From an uncultured Gammaproteobacteria bacterium (GTDB lineage: Bacteria > Patescibacteriota > Patescibacteriia > UBA9934 > CAZDDW01): a DNA stretch of 64,000 bases. Under the pieces are notes generated by a model. The model did no database searches. It was not told the DNA's origin and was given only the letters and a program-made list of their open reading frames with translations. Numbering within the stretch: the first letter of the stretch is position 1; each line of letters begins with the position of its first letter. Below are positions 13,044 through 59,183 of the stretch, one piece after another. The stretch covers positions 686,595-750,594 of the forward strand of contig OZ246408.1 in NCBI GenBank assembly GCA_965231015.1. Direction: 5' to 3'. Made by a program: the position numbers and the translations under genes.

Positions 13044-13073
13044 TAAGGTAATAAAATAATAAACAGAAACCAT

Positions 13074-13556
13074 ATGATAAATTTCAGGCGAAACAAAGAG
13101 GGTTTTACTTTGGTCGAGCTCCTCATTGTGATCGCAATCATTGTGATCCTGTTCGCTGTCATCTTGGTGGCCGTTGATCCACCAAAGCGACTTGGTCAAG
13201 CTCGAGATGCTGTGCGCCGTCAGGACGTTCGTGATATCCTCGAAGCGGTCCAACAATACATGGTGGACAACGATGGGGCTTACCCAACCGGACTGGACGC
13301 TGTTTCAGCCTCCTTCCAAGTACTTGGTACTGATGCCGCTGGATGTGACAGCACTTGTACAGCTGAAACTGCCCTGGCTGCTTGTTTAGACATGTCCGGT
13401 GACTTAGTTGAGGAATATCTGGCTGATATTCCATTTGATCCATCAAGCGGAGATGCTGGAAACACAGATTATGCTATCAATCGTACGGCTGGTGACCGCA
13501 TTGAAATAGTTGCTTGCGACCCGGAAATTGCAGCCACCATTTCAGTTAAACGATAA
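13074..13556 (+). CDS. Type IV major pilin (paralog 1)
   Basis: MINFRRNKEG|FTLVELLIVIAIIVILFAVILVAV is a canonical prepilin. A Cys-containing variable C-terminal region follows. An extended -10 promoter and a downstream terminator are present. Confidence 0.9.
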   Translation: MINFRRNKEGFTLVELLIVIAIIVILFAVILVAVDPPKRLGQARDAVRRQDVRDILEAVQQYMVDNDGAYPTGLDAVSASFQVLGTDAAGCDSTCTAETALAACLDMSGDLVEEYLADIPFDPSSGDAGNTDYAINRTAGDRIEIVACDPEIAATISVKR

Positions 13557-13571
13557 AACCAATCCGCAATT

Positions 13572-13602
13572 CCCCTTACAAATCCAAAAAGTAAGGGGTT
13601 TT
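13572..13602 (+). terminator. Intrinsic terminator after pilin 1
   Basis: Stem cccctTAC ... GTAagggg followed by TTTT. Confidence 0.7.
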
Positions 13603-13631
13603 GATATCCACAACCAAAATAAGCATAAAAA

Positions 13632-13640
13632 TGGTATAAT
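13632..13640 (+). promoter_or_regulatory. Extended -10 promoter (TGgTATAAT) of pilin paralog 2
   Basis: A TGnTATAAT match lies 32 nt upstream of the ATG, at the same spacing as paralog 1. Confidence 0.5.
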
Positions 13641-13671
13641 TGAGCCAACTTAAACAATTAATAATGTCTTT

Positions 13672-14151
13672 ATGATAAATTTCAGGCGAAACAAAGAGGG
13701 TTTTACTTTGGTTGAGCTCCTCATTGTGATCGCAATCATTGTGATCCTGTTCGCTGTCATCTTGGTGGCCGTTGATCCACCAAAGCGACTTGGTCAAGCT
13801 CGAGATGCTGTGCGCCGTCAGGACGTTCGTGATATCCTCGAAGCGGTCCAACAATACATGGTGGACAACGATGGGGCTTACCCAACCGGACTGGACGATG
13901 TTCAAACCTCATATCAGGTACTCGGAACCGGAGTTGGTTGTGACACCACTTGTGGTGCTGCTACCACCCTACCTGCTTGTTTAGACATGTCCGGTGACTT
14001 GGTTGAGGAATACCTGGCTGATATTCCATTTGACCCATCAACCGGAAGTGCGGCTAACACTGATTATGCCATCGAGCTAACTGCTGGCGACAGAATCGAA
14101 GTTTTAGCTTGTGACCCAGAAATTGCAGCCACAATTTCGGCCAAACGATAA
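13672..14151 (+). CDS. Type IV major pilin (paralog 2, tandem duplicate)
   Basis: The first 227 nt match paralog 1 with 1 mismatch. The middle and C-terminal regions diverge. Confidence 0.9.
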   Translation: MINFRRNKEGFTLVELLIVIAIIVILFAVILVAVDPPKRLGQARDAVRRQDVRDILEAVQQYMVDNDGAYPTGLDDVQTSYQVLGTGVGCDTTCGAATTLPACLDMSGDLVEEYLADIPFDPSTGSAANTDYAIELTAGDRIEVLACDPEIAATISAKR

Positions 14152-14174
14152 AGAAAAGTAAAGTTCTGATTATC

Positions 14175-14241: not shown

Positions 14242-17064
14242 ATGTCTAAATTCATCTTCTTTCTATTAATTGTCTTTCTGATAGCCCCTTTGGCTCTTAC
14301 AAAGCCTGTCCCGGCTGCTGCGCGGGGTTCGCTTATCAAGGGCAGTTTACCGGCCGTGTATTACTTGGCTTCAGACGGAAAACGCTACGTCTTCCCTAAC
14401 GAAAAAATCTACTTTTCCTGGTATGAAAATTTTTCTGGAGTCAGCGAGATTAATGACAGCACCCTGGCTTCTTATGACCTTGGCGGTAATGTTTCTTACC
14501 GACCCGGCACACATTTAGTAAAGATTCAAAGCAATTCCACGGTTTATGCGGTTGAACCCGGCGGCATGCTTCGCGCCATTGATTCAGAAGAGACAGCCAG
14601 CACCCTTTACGGCTCTGACTGGGCCAGTCGAGTACACGACCTGCCAGACAGCTTTTTTTCTTATTACACGGTGACTAACGAGCTGGACGAAACAGTCTAT
14701 CCTGAAGGTAGTTTATTAAAAGATTCTGTCTCAAGTGAATACTACATCATTTTAAATGGACAAAAACGCCTCTTAAGCGATGACGGGATCACAGCCAACG
14801 GTATTCAGACCAAATACGCTATCACTACTGATACCAGCTCTTACACATCAGGAAGCACCGTTACTACAGAGATTACTGAACTGGCAGACACTGCCCAAAT
14901 TGACCAGGGACTCATCAATCAGGACACCATCATTGAGGTCAGCACGGTTCAAAATGAAACCACCGTATTACAGGACGCCAACAACGAAGTCCTGGCCACT
15001 TACATTTTCTCCCTTACCAAAGAAGTCGAAATCAAATCTCTGGTTTTACGCATTCGCGCTCACTCGAGCACAGATAGCGATGACGATCCGGGTGGATTAA
15101 TTTATGAAGAAGGAGGAGGCAACCTAGAAAATATTCGTTTTGTTACCTCAGACGGAACACAATTATTGTCTTCGCGTAGCTTAAGTTCAGATACCAACAA
15201 AGACGGCCAGCAAGATATTAGCTTTACCGGAACGGCTACTTTACCGGTGGGCCAACACACGGTCAATGTTCTGGTGGACGTTATCGAGGAAGTTCCGGAT
15301 GGTGAAAGCTATTCCACCACTTTATACCTATCTGACACCTCTTTTGAGATATCAGGCAACGAAACAACGGATTACACTCCGGAGAGCCTATCCAGCGGTA
15401 CAGTAACCGTTAAAACGCAAAATTTGGCCGTTTCCGTAGCTTCCAACCTGGAAAACCAGTATTTCCTAAAAGGTGGAAATTCAGACTTTGTAGACTTAAT
15501 CTCTTTCAAATTGGAAAACTCGCGCAAAGAATCCGTGACCGTCTCCGAATTCACCCTAACCGGCTATATTGACGAACACGAAGGTGATACTGACTTTGTG
15601 GCCGGAGCTGATTCGGATAACTCCGGATCCAGCTTTACCTATGTTGATGATGTAATCGATAAGGTTGAACTGATTAATGAGGAAACCGAAGAATTAATCG
15701 GAACCCAGTCCACAGTACAATCAAACGGCGCGGTTTCTTTTGGGAACATTGACCTTACCCTGGAAGCCGAAACCAGCGTTAACCTACTGACTCGGGTTTA
15801 TATTAATTCTGATGCACCTTTCGGCCTACAGTCAGACCGCATTTCTTTTGATATTGATGACGTAGAAGATGATATGACTGTTAAAGTGACCGGTACTAGC
15901 CAAGAAGTTGATATTGAAGCTACCAGCCTAAACAATGGATCCAGTCCCGGCTCATTTTTGACCGTTTCTGAATCAGGAACTCTGACCATAGAGGGGTCCG
16001 GCAGTGCTCCGGCACGTCTTATTATGGGAACCGAGGAAAATTCTATCTATTCTTTTACCTTTACCGCTTCTGAAGAGGAGGCCATGATCATTGATACCTT
16101 GACGGTTCGCTTGCTTGACCCAAACGCCCAAAGAAGTGTGTCTAAGGTTGAACTAAGGCACCTTGGGGATGATGGTTATGAATACGTTGATGGAAACTTT
16201 GTTAACAGCAACGCTACTTTTGAAAACCTGGACATTGAAGTTCCCCAGGACGATGAATTGACTGTCAGTGTTTTAGTAGACATTGGCGATGACAACTCAT
16301 CGGCTCAATCCGGAGACAAAATTGGGGTGGCTTTTGAAACCAATACTTTCAAAGCCCATGGTGCAACATCCGGAATCCGGTTTGATAAAGATGATCTAGG
16401 TGAACACCTGATTGATTCAACCAGCCTCGGCTCAGAAACCTTTGTTCGGCGTAACGAACCAAATGTCAGTCTAGCCGTGAACCAACCAGACGCCTCACAA
16501 GGTCGTTCTGACCAAACAGAAATTTTCACCTTTACCCTTGGCTCAGAAGGAGAGGGTAATCCGGAATTAGAGTTAATTACCTTCAAAATTACCACCTCTG
16601 ACGTTGGTTACGATTTAAACGAAGAAGAGGCCGACAATGACCTCTTGGAAGGGCTAGCTGATATCAACGGTGATAGTTCTGATGACGACGAAACGGTTGA
16701 GATAATTGATGAAGAAAGCGGTGACACAATTTGTGAGGGATCGAGTGGGCACATTGATTTCTCAATTTATGATTATTCCGAGAGTGAAATTGATACTACA
16801 CCGGCCGGGCTTGATACAGATCGAGAAGATTATGGTTTGATAGTTTGTGAGATGAATAATCCGCTTCGTATATATAACGAGGGTCGGGATTACACATTTG
16901 GCTTAAACACCACTGAGCTGGCACCCGGAGCGCAAAATGTCCGTGTTACGATCCTTGGCGGTGATGACTTCCGATGGAACGATGGAACCAATACCAGCCT
17001 AACAGAAAATGGAGACGAGATCAGTGGCCTGAACTTAAACTCCCAATACGCCTCGTTCCAGTAA
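14242..17064 (+). CDS. Large secreted acidic protein (940 aa), function unknown
   Basis: Signal peptide MSKFIFFLLIVFLIAPLALTKPVPAAA. Highly D/E/T/S-rich. It lies directly downstream of the pilin genes. Confidence 0.6.
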   Translation: MSKFIFFLLIVFLIAPLALTKPVPAAARGSLIKGSLPAVYYLASDGKRYVFPNEKIYFSWYENFSGVSEINDSTLASYDLGGNVSYRPGTHLVKIQSNSTVYAVEPGGMLRAIDSEETASTLYGSDWASRVHDLPDSFFSYYTVTNELDETVYPEGSLLKDSVSSEYYIILNGQKRLLSDDGITANGIQTKYAITTDTSSYTSGSTVTTEITELADTAQIDQGLINQDTIIEVSTVQNETTVLQDANNEVLATYIFSLTKEVEIKSLVLRIRAHSSTDSDDDPGGLIYEEGGGNLENIRFVTSDGTQLLSSRSLSSDTNKDGQQDISFTGTATLPVGQHTVNVLVDVIEEVPDGESYSTTLYLSDTSFEISGNETTDYTPESLSSGTVTVKTQNLAVSVASNLENQYFLKGGNSDFVDLISFKLENSRKESVTVSEFTLTGYIDEHEGDTDFVAGADSDNSGSSFTYVDDVIDKVELINEETEELIGTQSTVQSNGAVSFGNIDLTLEAETSVNLLTRVYINSDAPFGLQSDRISFDIDDVEDDMTVKVTGTSQEVDIEATSLNNGSSPGSFLTVSESGTLTIEGSGSAPARLIMGTEENSIYSFTFTASEEEAMIIDTLTVRLLDPNAQRSVSKVELRHLGDDGYEYVDGNFVNSNATFENLDIEVPQDDELTVSVLVDIGDDNSSAQSGDKIGVAFETNTFKAHGATSGIRFDKDDLGEHLIDSTSLGSETFVRRNEPNVSLAVNQPDASQGRSDQTEIFTFTLGSEGEGNPELELITFKITTSDVGYDLNEEEADNDLLEGLADINGDSSDDDETVEIIDEESGDTICEGSSGHIDFSIYDYSESEIDTTPAGLDTDREDYGLIVCEMNNPLRIYNEGRDYTFGLNTTELAPGAQNVRVTILGGDDFRWNDGTNTSLTENGDEISGLNLNSQYASFQ

Positions 17065-17120
17065 AAATTAAGATAGGTAAGGGTACCTCTCGTGGGTGCC
17101 CTTATTTTGTTTATCTACTC

Positions 17121-17290
17121 TGTTTGTCTCCGCCACTTCGAGTACGACGGAGGTCAATGGACATTTTGACCGGCTCGTGACGAGGATTGTTTGAAGCCGA
17201 GCATCCACCAAAAAAAAGACGCAAGGCAAGTCCCGCAGTCAAAGTTAGAAATGTTCATTATTCACCTCAGGCGAACGCAGAAAGAAAGAA
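17121..17290. repeat. Conserved ~170-nt noncoding element, copy A
   Basis: Shares collinear blocks with copy B. It starts just after the terminator of the 940-aa gene. Confidence 0.6.
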
Positions 17291-17302
17291 AAGTGAATTG
17301 TT

Positions 17303-18223
17303 TTATACCTTAAGATAACGCCGCATAGCCATGCTAGAGGCGATAATATTGATCAAAAGTAAACCAAGCACCTGGGCTCCGAAAATTAATAAAAAGTTTT
17401 CATTGAAGTACCCAATGAGGTTTGAGGTAATAGGATCAAAGAAAGCGTCAAACCTGGGCTCCAAAACTCCTAATAACGGATAAAGAAGAATTATGGTTAT
17501 GGCGGTGGCAAGCAAACTAAAGATACCGGCTTCGGCAAAAAACGGAGCGCGGATAAAGAAACTTGAAGCTCCAACCAATCGCATAATAGATATTTCTTCA
17601 CGATGAATAAAGATGGCTACCCGAACCGTGTTAAACACAATCATGACCACAAACAACAAAAAGACTCCGGACAAGGCCAGACCAAACCAACGCACATGAT
17701 CAGTCACTCGGTTGATGCTGCCAATAATAGCCTCATAATCATCGAACTCTTTCTTCTCAATGTAGTCCCGGAACTGTGGATTATCAAGGGACTCTAAAAT
17801 AAAATCAAAGTCCTTTGGTGAACGAGCCGAAACCACCAGTGACGGACCAAACGGATTACCCTCAACTTCTTCCAAAGAACTTAATATGTCCGGATCCTCA
17901 CTGTGACGCTCAACAAAGCGGTTATATGCCTCGTCTGACGTGATCAAAACCGCATCTTGGACTTGAGGCAGGCCATTTAAATATCCCTGTGCGCCCTCTA
18001 CTATTTCCAACGAAGTGTCCGGCTCAAAATAGACTGAGATATCCACTTTTGATTCTACGGCCGCAATAGCAGTCTCGGTCACAACGTTTAAAATCACAAG
18101 CACATTTACGGTCAACAAAGTCAGTACCAACATGCTCACGGTGATAATCGAAAGCCAAAAGTTGCGCCAAAAATTTTGAAACGCAAACTTGATTATGCGA
18201 TATGTAGCGGTTATTAGATTCAC
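17303..18223 (-). CDS. ftsX: Cell division permease FtsX
   Basis: 306 aa. It has a large extracytoplasmic loop between TM1 and TM2, and C-terminal TMs (MRLVGASSFFIRAPFFAEAG). It overlaps ftsE by 4 nt. Confidence 0.85.
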   Translation of the reverse strand: MNLITATYRIIKFAFQNFWRNFWLSIITVSMLVLTLLTVNVLVILNVVTETAIAAVESKVDISVYFEPDTSLEIVEGAQGYLNGLPQVQDAVLITSDEAYNRFVERHSEDPDILSSLEEVEGNPFGPSLVVSARSPKDFDFILESLDNPQFRDYIEKKEFDDYEAIIGSINRVTDHVRWFGLALSGVFLLFVVMIVFNTVRVAIFIHREEISIMRLVGASSFFIRAPFFAEAGIFSLLATAITIILLYPLLGVLEPRFDAFFDPITSNLIGYFNENFLLIFGAQVLGLLLINIIASSMAMRRYLKV

Positions 18224-41145: not shown

Positions 41146-42495
41146 ATGTTGAATTTTCGCATTCGGATCGGGATTGTGGTCATCTTTATTCTGGCCTTCT
41201 TGATCACTGCCCCACTTTTGGTGCTCTACACCGCTGGTTATCGCTACAATTTTACTACCAATTCCTTTGTTCAAACCGGTCTTTTCTATGTGACTACTAT
41301 TCCTAAGGGAGCAGAAATAATTATCAATGATGAATTACGTGACTATTCACCAGCCTTTATTAAAAATCTGGTGCCTGGCGAATACAAACTCACACTTGAC
41401 CGGCCCGGATACCATTCCTGGACAAAAACCTTACCGATCATAAGTCAGGAAACAACCTTTATCGAGGATGTTGTACTTTTTACTGATGAAGACCCAGTAA
41501 ATTTGGTGAGCGAAAAAATCGTCAGTGCGGCACAAAATCCTTCCTACTCAACCTTTGCGTATGTGATGAACCAAAGCTCCTGGTATGAAATCTGGAATTA
41601 CTCCATTGCTGATGATGAACAATCCTTGCTTTACCGCATTGCCGCAGATGATGATGTTGTTCTTGATCTTAGTTGGTCAGCCAGTGGTGAACACCTGCTA
41701 ATTGAACAAACCCGGGACAACGAAGCGTCATACACTTTAATTGACCGTTCTGGTGAAAACCGTTTTGATCTGGCTGAAAAAATCGGAAAACCAATCACCA
41801 AAGCCTGGTGGCACCAAACCGATAATTACGCCATTATGTTTACCACTGATGAAACAACAGAGGTCTACCGGATTCCGAGCAGTAGCACAACCAAGCTCTA
41901 TGATAAACCTGTTTTGGCTACACTGATTGAGGGTCATCCAATTTTGACCGAGGTGGTTGAGGACCAGTTGTCGATATTCAGTTTCACAAATGACCAAGGA
42001 GACATCATTGCCTACGTTCCACTTGGCCAATACGAAATTATTGCCTCCCCTGAGCCATATTTATTACTACAAGAAACCACACAAGACAAAATTGTCTTAA
42101 TCGACACCAGTACCCGAAATCAGCCGATTATTTTAAATGTGGACGGAAGAGGTGTTGAATGGGCTCCGGATGGAAGCAATCGGATGCTCTACTGGAGTGC
42201 ATTGGAAGTTCATGTTTACAACCCGGCAACACACACTGATGAGCTGATTACCCGAGTTGGCGAACCTGTCACTTACACAGCCTGGCACCCGCTTTCTAAC
42301 GCAATCCTATTTGTCCAAGACACCAAACTTAGTGCAATCGAACTTGATTGGCGAGATCAACGCAACGAAATTCTATTAGCAGAGGGGTCAAACTTCAATA
42401 ACCTCTTTGTAACCAAAAACGGCCGCCGGGTTTACTTTGCCGGGACCGTTGGACCTGATTCAGGAATTTTTGAACTGCAAATTTTGGAGCGATAG
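41146..42495 (+). CDS. PEGA-domain membrane protein with C-terminal beta-propeller-like region
   Basis: N-terminal TM, then a PEGA-like fold (TTIPKGAEIIINDELRDYSPAFIKNLVPGEYKLTLDRPGYHSW). WD/TolB-like segments follow (WAPDGSNRMLYWS). Confidence 0.6.
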   Translation: MLNFRIRIGIVVIFILAFLITAPLLVLYTAGYRYNFTTNSFVQTGLFYVTTIPKGAEIIINDELRDYSPAFIKNLVPGEYKLTLDRPGYHSWTKTLPIISQETTFIEDVVLFTDEDPVNLVSEKIVSAAQNPSYSTFAYVMNQSSWYEIWNYSIADDEQSLLYRIAADDDVVLDLSWSASGEHLLIEQTRDNEASYTLIDRSGENRFDLAEKIGKPITKAWWHQTDNYAIMFTTDETTEVYRIPSSSTTKLYDKPVLATLIEGHPILTEVVEDQLSIFSFTNDQGDIIAYVPLGQYEIIASPEPYLLLQETTQDKIVLIDTSTRNQPIILNVDGRGVEWAPDGSNRMLYWSALEVHVYNPATHTDELITRVGEPVTYTAWHPLSNAILFVQDTKLSAIELDWRDQRNEILLAEGSNFNNLFVTKNGRRVYFAGTVGPDSGIFELQILER

Positions 42496-42519
42496 ATTGC
42501 CTGCCGGTACCCCACCTAA

Positions 42520-42547
42520 CCTCCCCTTAGAGGGGAGGGATTTTTGT
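42520..42547 (+). terminator. Intrinsic terminator after the PEGA gene
   Basis: cctcccct-tag-aggggagg followed by GATTTTTGTT. Confidence 0.8.
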
Positions 42548-42722
42548 TCCGCCACTTCGAGCACGACGGAGGTCAATGGACATTTTTGACCGACCCCGTC
42601 AGACGGGGTGACGAGAACTGTTTGAAGCTGAGTGTCTACCTTAAGAACAGACGGCGCGAGGCAAGTTTCGTAGTCAAGGTCATAAAATATTCATTATCTA
42701 CCTCCGGTGATCACAGAAAGAC
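42544..42722. repeat. Conserved ~170-nt noncoding element, copy B
   Basis: About 70% identical to copy A. It lies between the PEGA-gene terminator (42520-42547) and the murA terminator (42795-42835). Confidence 0.6.
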
Positions 42723-42794
42723 GGCCGGTTTCTTTTTTCTGGTTTTCTTTGCCGGCTCAAAGAAAACTGGGTTGAATCAAAAAGCACCGTAACA

Positions 42795-42835
42795 GAAAAC
42801 CGCCCCGCCAACGTATAAAACGTGGCGGGGTCCCG
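42795..42835 (-). terminator. Intrinsic terminator of murA
   Basis: On the minus strand: ccccgccacg-ttttata-cgttggcgggg followed by a T-run. Confidence 0.7.
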
Positions 42836-42875
42836 CCAGAGGCGGGAAACGGTGCCAATATTATATTTCTGAGCG

Positions 42876-44135
42876 TTAATCAGCTCGTTCGATATCGACG
42901 CCAACAGATTGCAACCGTTCGACCAAATTCGAATATCCTCGCTCGATCTGATAAATATTCTCAATCTCGGTTGTACCACGCGCGATCATGGCCGCAATAA
43001 CCATGGCAATGCCAGCCCGGATATCCGGGCTGATTAATTTTCGCCCATACAACTTACTTGGACCGTTCACTACTACCCGATGCGGATCACACATAATAAT
43101 ATTGGCTCCCATTTGAACCAACATATCAGTGAATAACAACCGACGTTCATAAATTGTTTCATGAACCACACAAGAACCATTAGCCCGAGTCATCAACACG
43201 GTGTAAGGCGATTGCAAATCAGTTGGGAAGCCAGGATACTCGTGAGTTCGTATTCCATAGGCCTTTATATCACCTGATGACTTTATATCAAGCCAATCTT
43301 CTCCGGTCTTCCATTCCACTCCGATTTTATTAAAGATGGTCAACAAAGATTCGATATGTGATGGATCGCAATTGGTAATTTTAAGAGCCGAACGAGTAGC
43401 CGCGGCCATGATTGCAAAAGTACCGGTTTCAATTCGGTCAGGCACGACATTAAATGTTCCAGCTTTCAATTTTTTCACCCCTTCGATAGTGATCGTCGGG
43501 GTTCCAGCTCCAGAAATCTTGGCTCCTTGTTCATTTAAATAATCTGCTAAGGCCTTGATTTCCGGCTCCATGGCACAATTCTTCAACACCGTGGTACCTT
43601 CTGCTAGCGTAGCTGTCATCATTAAACTTTCCGTTCCGGTCACACTGACAAGACTAAAGAAATACTCCGCACCTTTTAGTTTCTTGGCAGAAATTTCATA
43701 TGCCCCTTTGCCAATTTCAACCTTAGCTCCAAGTGCCTCAAAACCTTCCAAGAACAAATCGATTGGCCTGGTTCCAGCCCCAATCACACAACCGCCAGGA
43801 TGCGGAAAACGGACCTTGCCAAGCCGAGCCAAAAGCGGCCCCACAAACATGAGCGAAGTTCGAATCTTGTTGGCAAACTCTGGGTCTAGTTCATTTTTTT
43901 TCAAACCGTTATTATCAATTTCACAAGTTCCATTTTCACACTTCACCTCGAGCCCCAAGTCTTCGGCCAGCTCTAACATACGACGTACATCTTCAATGTC
44001 AGGCAAATTATTGATCGTCAGCTTCCCTTCACCAAGCAGGGCGGCCGGAATAATTTTTAAAGCCGAGTTCTTGGCTCCTTGAACTGCAATCTCACCTTTT
44101 AAATGACTCTTTCCTTTAATAACGTATTTGGACAT
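42876..44135 (-). CDS. murA: UDP-N-acetylglucosamine 1-carboxyvinyltransferase MurA
   Basis: 419 aa. MSKYVIKGKSHLKGEIAVQGAKNSALKIIPAALL, and an active-site Cys in RFPHPGGCVIGAGTRPID. Confidence 0.9.
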   Translation of the reverse strand: MSKYVIKGKSHLKGEIAVQGAKNSALKIIPAALLGEGKLTINNLPDIEDVRRMLELAEDLGLEVKCENGTCEIDNNGLKKNELDPEFANKIRTSLMFVGPLLARLGKVRFPHPGGCVIGAGTRPIDLFLEGFEALGAKVEIGKGAYEISAKKLKGAEYFFSLVSVTGTESLMMTATLAEGTTVLKNCAMEPEIKALADYLNEQGAKISGAGTPTITIEGVKKLKAGTFNVVPDRIETGTFAIMAAATRSALKITNCDPSHIESLLTIFNKIGVEWKTGEDWLDIKSSGDIKAYGIRTHEYPGFPTDLQSPYTVLMTRANGSCVVHETIYERRLLFTDMLVQMGANIIMCDPHRVVVNGPSKLYGRKLISPDIRAGIAMVIAAMIARGTTEIENIYQIERGYSNLVERLQSVGVDIERAD

Positions 44136-54351: not shown

Positions 54352-54915
54352 ATGATTGAAATTAATCATGAGGTTCCCAACATTGAACTTGAGGCCTACC
54401 ACGGCAACGAAATTAAGAAACTTCATCTTAATGATTACCGTGGCAAATGGCTGATCTTGTTCTTTTATCCGGCTGACTTTACCTTTGTTTGTCCTACTGA
54501 ACTTGGTGAAATGGCCGATCTGTACGAAGAGTTTAAAAAAGCTGACGCCGAAGTTCTTAGTGTTAGTACTGACACAGTCTTCGTTCACAAGGCCTGGCAT
54601 GACGAGTCCGAGACAATAGGTCGAATCGAGTTTCCAATGGTAGCTGATCCAACCGGTAAACTGTCACGTCAAATGGGAGTTTACATCGAAGACGAAGGTG
54701 TGGCCTTGCGAGGAAGTTTCGTGATTGATCCAGACGGCATTCTGAAGGCGTTTGAGATTCATGACAACAGTGTAGGACGATCCGCTACCGAGCTCTTGCG
54801 TAAACTCCAAGCGGCTAAATTCGTTCGCGAACATGGCGGCGAGGTTTGTCCGGCCAATTGGAAACCAGGTGGTGATACTTTGAAGCCAGGGCTCGACTTA
54901 GTCGGTAAAATTTAA
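54352..54915 (+). CDS. 2-Cys peroxiredoxin (AhpC/Prx family)
   Basis: Peroxidatic Cys motif FTFVCPTE, and a resolving Cys in GEVCPANW. Confidence 0.9.
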   Translation: MIEINHEVPNIELEAYHGNEIKKLHLNDYRGKWLILFFYPADFTFVCPTELGEMADLYEEFKKADAEVLSVSTDTVFVHKAWHDESETIGRIEFPMVADPTGKLSRQMGVYIEDEGVALRGSFVIDPDGILKAFEIHDNSVGRSATELLRKLQAAKFVREHGGEVCPANWKPGGDTLKPGLDLVGKI

Positions 54916-54926
54916 GCTTAAAATAA

Positions 54927-54954
54927 CCTTAATTGTCCACGTGGTCAAATAAGG
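54927..54954. promoter_or_regulatory. 28-nt palindrome CCTTAATTGTCCACGTGGTCAAATAAGG between peroxiredoxin and SOD
   Basis: Near-perfect dyad centred on CACGTG. A second copy is at 58688-58715. Confidence 0.55.
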
Positions 54955-54963
54955 TACAAACAT

Positions 54964-57951: not shown

Positions 57952-58527
57952 ATCCTGTTGATTTTAGCTTAAAATCAGGTTAAAGTACAATTCAATCTAA
58001 ATTTTTCCAATTGACGTTTATGCTCAGGCGTGGCAGTATAACGTGTCAAAGCGAAAATTAATCGGACAATCTCCCAAAACCTATAGGAGGCAACATAGAA
58101 ATCATTAGAATGGAGTGGGTCTTCGTGGTCATTCTTCTGATGAGAAAATTCACTGAGGGGAAAACATGAAGTTCGTGATTTTGCAAGACCCCCCTCGCTG
58201 GGGGAGACGGATCGCAAGATATACGCAACCACGCCGGGCGGCTTTCGAGATCCCGAGTCAACAGTGCTTGGGGAGTTCGAAACTGAAGCCCCCAATCACC
58301 TCATTGGTGACTTGGGAATCCTGACTTGCTTTGGGCGCAATGCTTTCAAAACAGGTGCAAATTGGGCTCGTGAAAATCCCGACAAGTCGTTCGATGAGGA
58401 CTGCGCACGGCGACGAGGTTTACCGTTGGTTAGTGGTGTTTTCAACAAACGTCACTAGCCGAGGGCTTTTTATTAATCACTAAACCAATTTTATCGAAAT
58501 TAAACTTTTTCCTACTCGGCCAAAATC

Positions 58528-58539
58528 TCACGATCGTGA
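58528..58539. promoter_or_regulatory. Palindrome TCACGATCGTGA, unit 1 operator
   Basis: Centred about 43 nt upstream of the downstream -10 hexamer 58571-58576. Confidence 0.6.
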
Positions 58540-58545
58540 AATTTC

Positions 58546-58576
58546 GGACAATCAATATAAATATTGTGTGTATAAT
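58546..58576 (+). promoter_or_regulatory. Promoter, unit 1 (GGACAA -35, 19-nt spacer, extended -10 TGTGTATAAT)
   Basis: TGnTATAAT at 58567-58576. The predicted TSS is near 58583. Confidence 0.55.
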
Positions 58577-58582
58577 GCGTAC

Positions 58583-58725
58583 CATTTAATCTTTTAGTTA
58601 AAAGGTTGTCGGGAGTGCATTGTATAAAAAGTGGACGACCGTCAAAAAGCAACCAACCACAAGGTGCTAATACGTAAAAGAAAAAAACCTTATTTGACCA
58701 CGTGCACAAATAAGGACCTTTTTTG
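58583..58725 (+). ncRNA. Candidate small RNA, unit 1 (~140 nt), ending at the 28-nt palindrome plus U-run
   Basis: A 5' stem-loop UUAAUC-UUUU-AGUUAA. The 3' hairpin ccttatttg...caaataagg (58688-58715) is followed by TTTTTT. There is no conserved ORF. Confidence 0.4.
58688..58715. promoter_or_regulatory. 28-nt palindrome CCTTATTTGACCACGTGCACAAATAAGG (copy of the prx-sod dyad)
   Basis: Same half-sites as 54927-54954. Here it is followed by a T6 run, so it looks terminator-like. Confidence 0.55.
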
Positions 58726-58802
58726 ACTTAATGTTATTACCTCTTTCCCCTACCACAAAATCAACTTAATCATATCTGAATAATATGCTTTCTCAGGCAA
58801 AA

Positions 58803-58818
58803 TCTCACGATCGTGAGA
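58803..58818. promoter_or_regulatory. Perfect 16-nt palindrome TCTCACGATCGTGAGA, unit 2 operator
   Basis: Same position relative to the unit 2 promoter as in unit 1. Confidence 0.6.
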
Positions 58819-58822
58819 TTTT

Positions 58823-58852
58823 GGTCAATCGGTACAAAAATTTATGTAAAAT
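58823..58852 (+). promoter_or_regulatory. Promoter, unit 2 (GGTCAA -35, 18-nt spacer, extended -10 TATGTAAAAT)
   Basis: Aligns base-for-base with the unit 1 promoter. The predicted TSS is near 58859. Confidence 0.5.
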
Positions 58853-58981
58853 AGGCTCCATTTAACCTTTTGGTTAAATGATCATTCGGTGTTTATTGTA
58901 CAAAAATAGACGGTCGTCAGATAATATACAATTCAAAACCTGTCAATCTTAAATCGAACTATGCATTATTTCGACAAAAAT

Positions 58982-58993
58982 TCGCGATCGTGA
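58982..58993. promoter_or_regulatory. Third, imperfect copy of the operator (TCGCGATCGTGA)
   Basis: One mismatch to the TCACGATCGTGA core. It lies inside unit 2. Confidence 0.4.
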
Positions 58994-59141
58994 AAAAGTG
59001 CCGAAACTAAAAACCAACACGGTTTATACAATCGTATAAACCGTGTTGGTTCAATCAAATTCGATTGGCATTCCATGTCTTGTTTTTGTCTTTTTTGTTC
59101 CCTATCACCAAATCAACTTATTAATTACTTTCCAAAAGTAA

Positions 59142-59179
59142 AAACCCTGCCCGAGGGTTGGCTCGGGCAGGGTTTTTTT
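59142..59179. terminator. Bidirectional intrinsic terminator (12-bp GC-rich stem)
   Basis: accctgcccgag-ggttgg-ctcgggcagggt with T-runs on both strands. It ends the lipoprotein gene on the minus strand and the repeat-region transcripts on the plus strand. Confidence 0.85.
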
Positions 59180-59183
59180 ATTT

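Follow-up and report, generated by a model that had tools for sequence, protein, structure and literature searches.

The gap between a PEGA-domain gene and murA in the 64-kb stretch of DNA analysed here (hereafter the window) holds a non-coding element, copy B, that is a member of a small, not previously catalogued family of rod-folding non-coding cassettes. The cassettes are about 290-330 nt long (42549-42875 for the full unit of copy B), and the data at hand show a rare family of narrow distribution, its copies belonging to an uncultured, ultra-small, Uhrbacteria-like CPR lineage.

Copies, relatives and genomic setting

Copy B lies in a 380-nt convergent gap between the PEGA-domain gene (41146-42495, + strand) and murA (42876-44135, - strand; stop codon at 42876-42878), the identities of both genes having been confirmed by Pfam. 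An earlier note, made from the letters of the window, had described the element as one of twins, and the twin is real: blastn with 42481-42860 as the query against the whole window returned a match at 17123-17285 (+ strand, 75.6% over 180 nt, E 1.7e-28), all other matches being noise. This copy A consists of the rod core alone (17130-17289, + strand, 153 bits with the covariance model) and occupies another convergent gap, between a gene for a 940-aa protein that closes a type IV pilus cluster (14242-17064, + strand) and ftsX (17303-18223, - strand). Its end and the ftsX stop codon are 13 nt apart, and it lacks the P2 side hairpin, the 3' U-rich module and the right-end terminator described below. 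The coordinates 42544-42722 given earlier for copy B had to be adjusted at both ends, as the conserved core starts sharply with CCGCC at 42549 and runs to 42725, which is also the span of the covariance model hit (193.5 bits). No third copy was found in the window by nhmmer or the covariance model, and none turned up when the window was extended leftwards by 8.6 kb and rightwards by 6.7 kb, which leaves two copies in about 79 kb of genome.

Metagenome contigs were scanned with CCGCCACTTCGAGNACGACGG, which gave 34 loci; five of them were true and represent three distinct copies, L017 (the same as L025), L029 (the same as L020) and L023 (cut by the contig end), all from one metagenome project, while the other 29 were rejected as chance matches within high-GC coding sequence. 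The true homologs have GGAGGTTAATGG in place of the GGAGGTCAATGG of the window (T for C at one position), and because of this difference the family was missed by a scan of genome contigs with the 20-mer ACGACGGAGGTCAATGGACA, the sole match of which was a chance one in a Planctomycetales MAG. A scan of related sequence (306 kb plus 53 kb) with the covariance model (R1) turned up no diverged copies, viral contigs searched with three patterns contained no true match, and blastn against plasmids and phages gave no match. With Rfam 15 at the gathering threshold, the whole window returned two tRNAs alone, and with E values of up to 10 the copies A, B, L017 and L029 produced noise (at most 19 bits vs. 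gathering scores of 35-90); resemblances to hammerhead and tRNA-like RNAs seen by eye were unsupported by Rfam or ARAGORN. A literature search retrieved nothing on such an element in CPR bacteria. The comparisons below use four full sequences (A, B, L017 and L029), which probably represent two or three genomes of a single habitat. Kinship among them does not follow the genome, copy A being nearer to L029 (88%) than to copy B (81%), and copy B nearer to L017 (87%).

Annotation places the homologs of the PEGA protein and FtsX in Candidatus Uhrbacteria or Patescibacteria. The same PEGA and FtsX proteins occur on the NCBI contig and in the Logan assemblies of SRR7048225 and SRR7048221, and strain L002 has a spacer identical to that of the window. 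Wherever both flanks of a copy are known, the flanking genes are convergent, and the neighbours (PEGA protein, MurA, FtsX, 940-aa protein, MraW/FtsL, unknown proteins) differ at every copy. As a test for a retron, an IS110 bridge RNA or a TnpB/IscB guide RNA, a reverse transcriptase, recombinase or nuclease gene was sought beside the copies, and none was adjacent.

The PEGA-murA gap measures 380 nt in the window, 135 nt in the relative L004 (PEGA 85% identical) and 98 nt in L005, and the two genes overlap in L009; the element is absent from all three of these loci, and since the gaps of the relatives are short and element-free, about 330 nt (42549-42875) are extra DNA in this genome. The intrinsic terminator of the PEGA gene, found by a terminator scan (42520-42548, + strand; CCTCCCCTTAGAGGGGAGG with the hairpin at 42520-42538, then a T-run), is host sequence outside the element, and the same terminator motif follows the PEGA gene of L004, which is without the element. 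As a side observation, the motif GGTACCCCACCTAACCTCCCCTTAGAGGGGAGG occurs in this terminator (window 42508-42540) and twice, inverted, in L004 (11370-11465), where it forms a long hairpin that fills the entire PEGA-murA gap, and hairpins with GGTACC are also found upstream of copy A and of the L017 copy.

At the other locus, the FtsX of L023 is 91% identical to that of the window, and the element is co-directional with ftsX there vs. convergent in copy A. In relatives whose FtsX is about 74% identical, ftsX is followed by a tRNA gene and the element is absent. Such a tRNA gene was seen 3' of ftsX at 11020-11095 in L054 and at 11055-11135 in L056, and the region is rearranged between lineages. 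The empty L004 site, the flipped orientation at ftsX, the kinship of the copies and a right end that is near-identical in different contexts together argue that the unit moves or is exchanged. No direct repeat that could be a target-site duplication brackets copy A, copy B or L029, the left flanks (GTCT, TGTT, GTTT, GATT, GGCT) share nothing that could be an insertion target, and no transposase, recombinase or reverse transcriptase is encoded in the 64-kb window. The relative L005 encodes a Y1 transposase, for which no homolog was found in any other sequence compared. An attL/attR pair was rejected, as the copies are just 76-81% identical and have core genes between them, and so was a diversity-generating-retroelement TR/VR pair, as both copies are intergenic and their differences are mostly transitions and not adenine-specific.

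Several other features of the window were recorded in passing. Copy A lies at a switch point of gene orientation, from + (1-17 kb) to mostly - (17-64 kb), and the GC skew goes from about zero to strongly negative at the same place (about 17000-18000), a change that may reflect a strand switch linked to replication. In the type IV pilus cluster, two adjacent genes for pilin-like proteins with an N-terminal methylation motif (13074-13556 and 13672-14151) are covered by a tandem duplication of about 600 nt (13054-14152; 277 nt at 93% and 218 nt at 81%). The region 57952-59183 comprises 1.2 kb with no long ORF and no Logan gene call, which is unusually long for a compact genome. Within it, at 58499-58565 and 58792-58845, lie repeats of 51 nt (direct) and 46 nt (inverted) built around CTCACGATCGTGAGA-like palindromes. 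A 50-nt inverted repeat pair (54906-54955 / 58687-58736, 78% complementary, with a CCACGTGG-type palindrome) has one arm between peroxiredoxin and superoxide dismutase genes and may be a shared operator.

Fold of the core and conservation of its arms

The core is a long imperfect palindrome over its whole length, and RNAalifold gives a single long rod of 57-58 pairs for copies A, B, L017 and L029. The earlier suggestion of an independently folded unit agrees with this rod, in which 96.4% of the pair cells are standard, and with compensatory changes in its side hairpin; when the partners were slid by 1-3 columns, standard pairs made up about 38% of the cells (36-41%). Three pairs are changed on both sides, and the covariation score was reached by 8 of 500 shuffles of the four sequences, a statistic that is weak given just four full copies that probably stem from two or three genomes and one habitat. 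We regard the covariation in this alignment as suggestive support for the rod fold. The whole units are much more stable than shuffled sequences, with z values of -4.5 for copy B and -7.3 for L029. The rod has a minimum free energy (MFE) of -57.6 kcal/mol in copy B and -39.6 kcal/mol in copy A vs. -77 in L017 and -80 in L029, the rods being partly decayed in the former two and intact in the latter two.

Along the + strand of copy B, the rod begins with a near-invariant 5' arm at 42549-42592 (CCGCCACTTCGAGyACGACGGAGGTyAATGGACATTTTTGACCG in the alignments), which contains GGAGG (42568-42572) and ATG (42576-42578). The side hairpin P2 follows at 42593-42609 (ACCCC-GTCAGAC-GGGGT). Its covarying stem is ACCCC/GGGGU in copy B, AUUCC/GGAAU in L017 and GUCCC/GGGAU in L029, and is deleted in copy A; with two pairs changed on both sides and 100% of the cells paired, it is the clearest case of covariation. 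The segment 42610-42677, delimited with RNAalifold and pair counts, comprises the junction (G/A)UGACGAG, conserved and unpaired in the consensus fold, and an apical arm with a terminal loop; in this region several single-sided changes from G-C to G-U retain pairing. The 3' arm (42678-42725, GGTCATAAAATATTCATTATCTACCTCCGGTGATCACAGAAAGACGGC), the pairing partner of the 5' arm, varies more. In the rod, the GGAGG of the 5' arm is paired with ACCUCC of the 3' arm, and within the first 25 nt a single base varies, its C-to-U change in copy A being accompanied by a G-to-A change at the pairing position (pair 14-170).

The two arms differ sharply in conservation. Among the four full copies, variable columns number 3/44 in the 5' arm vs. 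15/48 in the 3' arm (Fisher p 0.0036) and 58/140 in the rest of the core (p 7e-6), and copies A and B keep the 5' arm despite their partly decayed rods. Pairing alone cannot account for such an asymmetry in decayed rods, and the constraint on the 5' arm is one on its sequence.

Right end, strand and coding potential

The unit extends beyond the coordinates given earlier for copy B, through a stretch (42726-42875) that was revealed by the homologs L017 and L029. Its first part is a U/C-rich 3' module (42726-42772, + strand), kept in copy B, L017 and L029 and absent in copy A, in which two mutually exclusive hairpins can form. The GCCGG/CCGGC hairpin of 5 bp reported earlier next to the core is present (42724-42728/42752-42756, 14/15 cells paired) but has to compete with a longer one of 13 bp, formed by CTGGTTTTCTTTG (42739-42751) and CAAAGAAAACTGG (42758-42770), in which 38/39 cells are paired. 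The right-end module (42784-42875, with no strand assigned) has a stem of GCACCGT (42784-42790) and ACGGTGC (42849-42855) that encloses extra hairpins. In L029 and L023 this stem reads as a compact bidirectional terminator with U-rich tails, while the loop of copy B is enlarged and houses two more hairpins; a 3'-end terminator is thus present in copy B, L029 and L023, and copy A has none. After the stem, AATATTATATTTCTGAGCG (42857-42875) adjoins the murA stop codon. Copy B and L029 have a common tail, AATATTATATTTCyGAGyG, at the stop codon of the convergent gene (murA in the former, an unknown 230-aa gene in the latter), and the 28-nt right end of copy B is 96% identical to that of L029. The right-end modules of L023 and L029 are 98% identical over 47 nt next to different genes, that of L023 standing directly after ftsX. 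The AT-rich right-end motif is single in copy B and L029 and forms an inverted pair in L023; a dif/Xer site or invertible switch was rejected here, as palindromic dif arms are missing. We also noted that downstream of ftsX in L023 (40-230) a 22-nt inverted pair, CTCGGAAATATAATATTGGCAC / GTGCCTATATTATATTTCCTCG with 3 mismatches, brackets about 130 nt with a terminator hairpin and is followed by a run of ten G and then by the element, an arrangement that suggests a past recombination or inversion.

That copy B sits between terminators, as previously claimed, holds on both sides, with the PEGA-gene terminator upstream and hairpins downstream of the murA stop codon (42876-42878). The further claim of independent expression did not find support, given that no promoter-like site and no shared sequence was seen upstream: no sigma-70-like promoter was found upstream of copy A or copy B, and no sequence is shared upstream of the CCGCC boundary among the five copies. 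In copies A and B the element starts about 10-25 nt past the T-run of the terminator of the upstream gene; with no visible promoter, a transcript would need read-through of that terminator or an unrecognised promoter.

The + strand is probably the active one, judging from folding models. The consensus energy was -54.9 on the + strand vs. -47.3 on the - strand for the four sequences and -85.7 vs. -75.2 for three, and the MFE of single sequences was -77.1 vs. -67.4 for L017 and -80.3 vs. -71.6 for L029, while copy A folds slightly better on the - strand. The 13-bp hairpin of copy B carries two C-to-U changes, and the resulting U-G and G-U pairs are wobble pairs on the + strand alone. When the 5' arm was aligned with the reverse complement of the 3' arm under a scoring that gave wobble pairs no advantage, there were 14 G.T vs. 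14 A.C mismatches, so that the strand call rests on the energies and a few sites.

Protein coding was rejected, as indels are not multiples of three and frames differ between the copies. In a six-frame comparison of the four copies there was no conserved ORF except a hydrophilic mini-ORF of 7-13 codons, and the small hydrophobic ORF of a type I toxin is absent. Translations of the ORFs of the element matched no protein family, the translated frame of copy B had no match among 1.84 billion representatives, and a 101-aa ORF of L029 matched itself alone. The mini-ORF, read directly from the sequence, lies inside the rod (42576-42611, + strand, MDIFDRPRQTG*; 17157-17180 in copy A) and runs from the conserved AUG to the UGA of GUGACGAG. 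It has GGAGG 3 nt upstream of the AUG and stays open for 7, 11, 13 and 13 codons to the same UGA (GUGACGAG) in the four full copies despite 6- and 12-nt indels, for which we estimate a chance probability of roughly 0.05-0.1. In a search for target duplexes, the arms and the U/C-rich module were compared with 50 start regions, and one outlier emerged, the ftsX start, at -32.1 kcal/mol with copy B 42726-42758 (null best -22.4, sd 3). It was treated as chance, since neither the modules of L017 and L029 nor the ftsX start region of L023 reproduced it.

Origin and possible function

The element belongs among known kinds of element rather than to a new kind. It is like the ERIC, Correia/NEMIS and REPIN repeats in being non-coding, 100-300 nt long and imperfectly palindromic from end to end, with a long hairpin as its fold, and in lying in intergenic tails, often of convergent genes, in either orientation and with presence or absence between close relatives. 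Unlike these repeats, it has shown no target-site duplication, conserved target, partner transposase or RAYT, its copy number is very low so far, and it has one far more conserved arm, a covarying side hairpin and its own bidirectional terminator. With multi-copy trans-acting sRNAs such as OmrA/OmrB and Qrr it shares a near-identical 5' part, a diverged rest, a stand-alone intergenic location and a terminator at the end; it differs from them in that no promoter travels with it, the 5' part is buried in a duplex of roughly 45 bp instead of being exposed, and the copies are not syntenic. The rod of about 180 nt closed by pairing of the 5' and 3' ends recalls 6S RNA, but the element has no two-strand central bubble and no Rfam match, and is neither single-copy nor syntenic. 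Its location directly downstream of intrinsic terminator hairpins, and that alone, is like that of bacterial group IIC introns, from which it is set apart by a far too small size and by the lack of a GUGYG 5' end, a domain V, a reverse transcriptase and an Rfam intron match.

The explanation that we favour, tentatively and at somewhat less than an even chance, is an insertable cassette that would encode a structured RNA on the + strand with a functional, masked 5' arm. Such a cassette would consist of the rod core of about 180 nt, the U-rich hairpin module and the bidirectional terminator, and in a narrow Uhrbacteria-like CPR lineage cassettes of this kind would have been inserted, or moved by recombination, into tail-to-tail gaps of convergent genes. 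The core would be read from the + strand as a long imperfect hairpin RNA, in which the near-invariant 44-nt 5' arm, with its SD-like GGAGG, its AUG and a conserved upstream stretch, may be the functional, sequence-specific part, masked through pairing by a more freely evolving 3' arm that carries ACCUCC. We infer that the element would be transcribed, that the + strand would be the active one and that the 5' arm, once unmasked, may act by base pairing or protein binding. A stronger version, to which we incline a good deal less and which we consider unlikely, is a new class of structured non-coding RNA of CPR bacteria that would spread in the form of a self-contained cassette, made up of the RNA and its bidirectional terminator, with the 44-nt arm as the effector (a guide, a seed or a protein-binding domain); this arm would be released from the complementary arm by processing or unfolding.

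The missing promoter is the main weakness of the RNA-gene reading, since a gene with its own promoter should bring it along, and it is at the same time the main strength of the reading as a repeat element. According to the latter, which we find doubtful though worth serious consideration, the element would be a selfish, non-autonomous repeat (MITE-, ERIC- or REPIN-like) that is mobilised in trans and tolerated in tail-to-tail gaps alone, the hairpin belonging to the DNA or to a single-stranded transposition intermediate and any RNA being a by-product. Besides the lack of a promoter upstream of copies A and B, this fits the sharp ends with unrelated flanks at every copy, the presence or absence at orthologous sites and the flipped orientation at ftsX, a kinship of the copies that does not track the genome of origin, the right-end module that is near-identical in different contexts, rods that are intact in L017 and L029 and decayed in A and B, and the equal numbers of G.T and A.C mismatches between the arms in the alignment scored with no advantage for wobble pairs. 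It sits badly with the lack of a target-site duplication and of a common target at the left junctions, with the lack of a transposase, recombinase or reverse transcriptase in the 64-kb window (the Y1 transposase of L005 having no homologs), and with just two copies in about 79 kb. Neutral decay would moreover be expected in both arms alike, yet the 5' arm is near-invariant, and recognition of terminal repeats leaves the covarying P2 unexplained. REP and ERIC elements protect the 3' ends of flanking mRNAs, and an improbable alternative is that of a cis-acting insulator or stabiliser with no function in trans, in which the rod and the bidirectional terminator would block convergent transcription and protect the 3' ends of the neighbouring mRNAs. 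Every copy for which both flanks are known does sit between convergent genes, in copy B, L029 and L023 the convergent gene has its stop codon next to the bidirectional terminator, and a U-rich run follows the rod on the + strand. But the flanking genes have terminators of their own that separate them from the rod, so that the rod would seldom be transcribed within the flanking mRNAs; relatives cope with a gap of 98-135 nt or with overlapping genes, and a purely structural role needs no invariant arm sequence.

Two further readings start from particular parts of the rod. In a translational device, GGAGG and AUG would start the mini-ORF of 7-13 codons, the translation of which would open the rod and refold the 3' module. 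GGAGG, AUG and the in-frame UGA are kept in 4/4 full copies despite the 6- and 12-nt indels, the GGAGG is paired with ACCUCC in the rod, and two mutually exclusive conserved hairpins lie downstream; we nevertheless judge this device very improbable, as the spacing between GGAGG and AUG is just 3 nt, the peptide is conserved as MDI(F/L) alone with its variable part being the covarying P2 hairpin, there is no downstream gene on the + strand to regulate, and the conservation of the frame could be due to chance at the probability estimated above. The opposite arm, moreover, carries a mirror GGAGG-ATG because the element is palindromic. Even less credit is given to a divergent 6S-like RNA that would bind RNA polymerase as an open-promoter mimic. 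The length of about 180 nt and the closure of the rod by the 5' and 3' ends would suit it, and some bacteria have two 6S paralogs per genome (Bacillus 6S-1 and 6S-2). No 6S model scores, however, even with E up to 10, and the two-stranded central bubble is missing: the consensus fold has the side hairpin plus 7 nt on the 5' strand opposite 2-3 nt on the 3' strand, and about 30 nt of the 5' strand (mostly P2) are left outside the rod pairing vs. 2-3 nt. The element is also absent from close relatives and not syntenic, which makes this the least probable of the readings considered and one that we scarcely expect to hold.

Patescibacteria have genomes of roughly 1 Mb with very little non-coding DNA, and to our knowledge almost nothing is known of regulatory RNAs or small mobile repeats in this group. 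Were it to prove merely a palindromic repeat, the element would have limited general interest but would still be one of a small number of repeat families on record in CPR genomes. The element further marks recent exchange of DNA among co-occurring lineages. As a 330-nt non-coding insertion between essential cell-wall genes, with one arm under strong purifying selection, it is a good candidate for a functional RNA.
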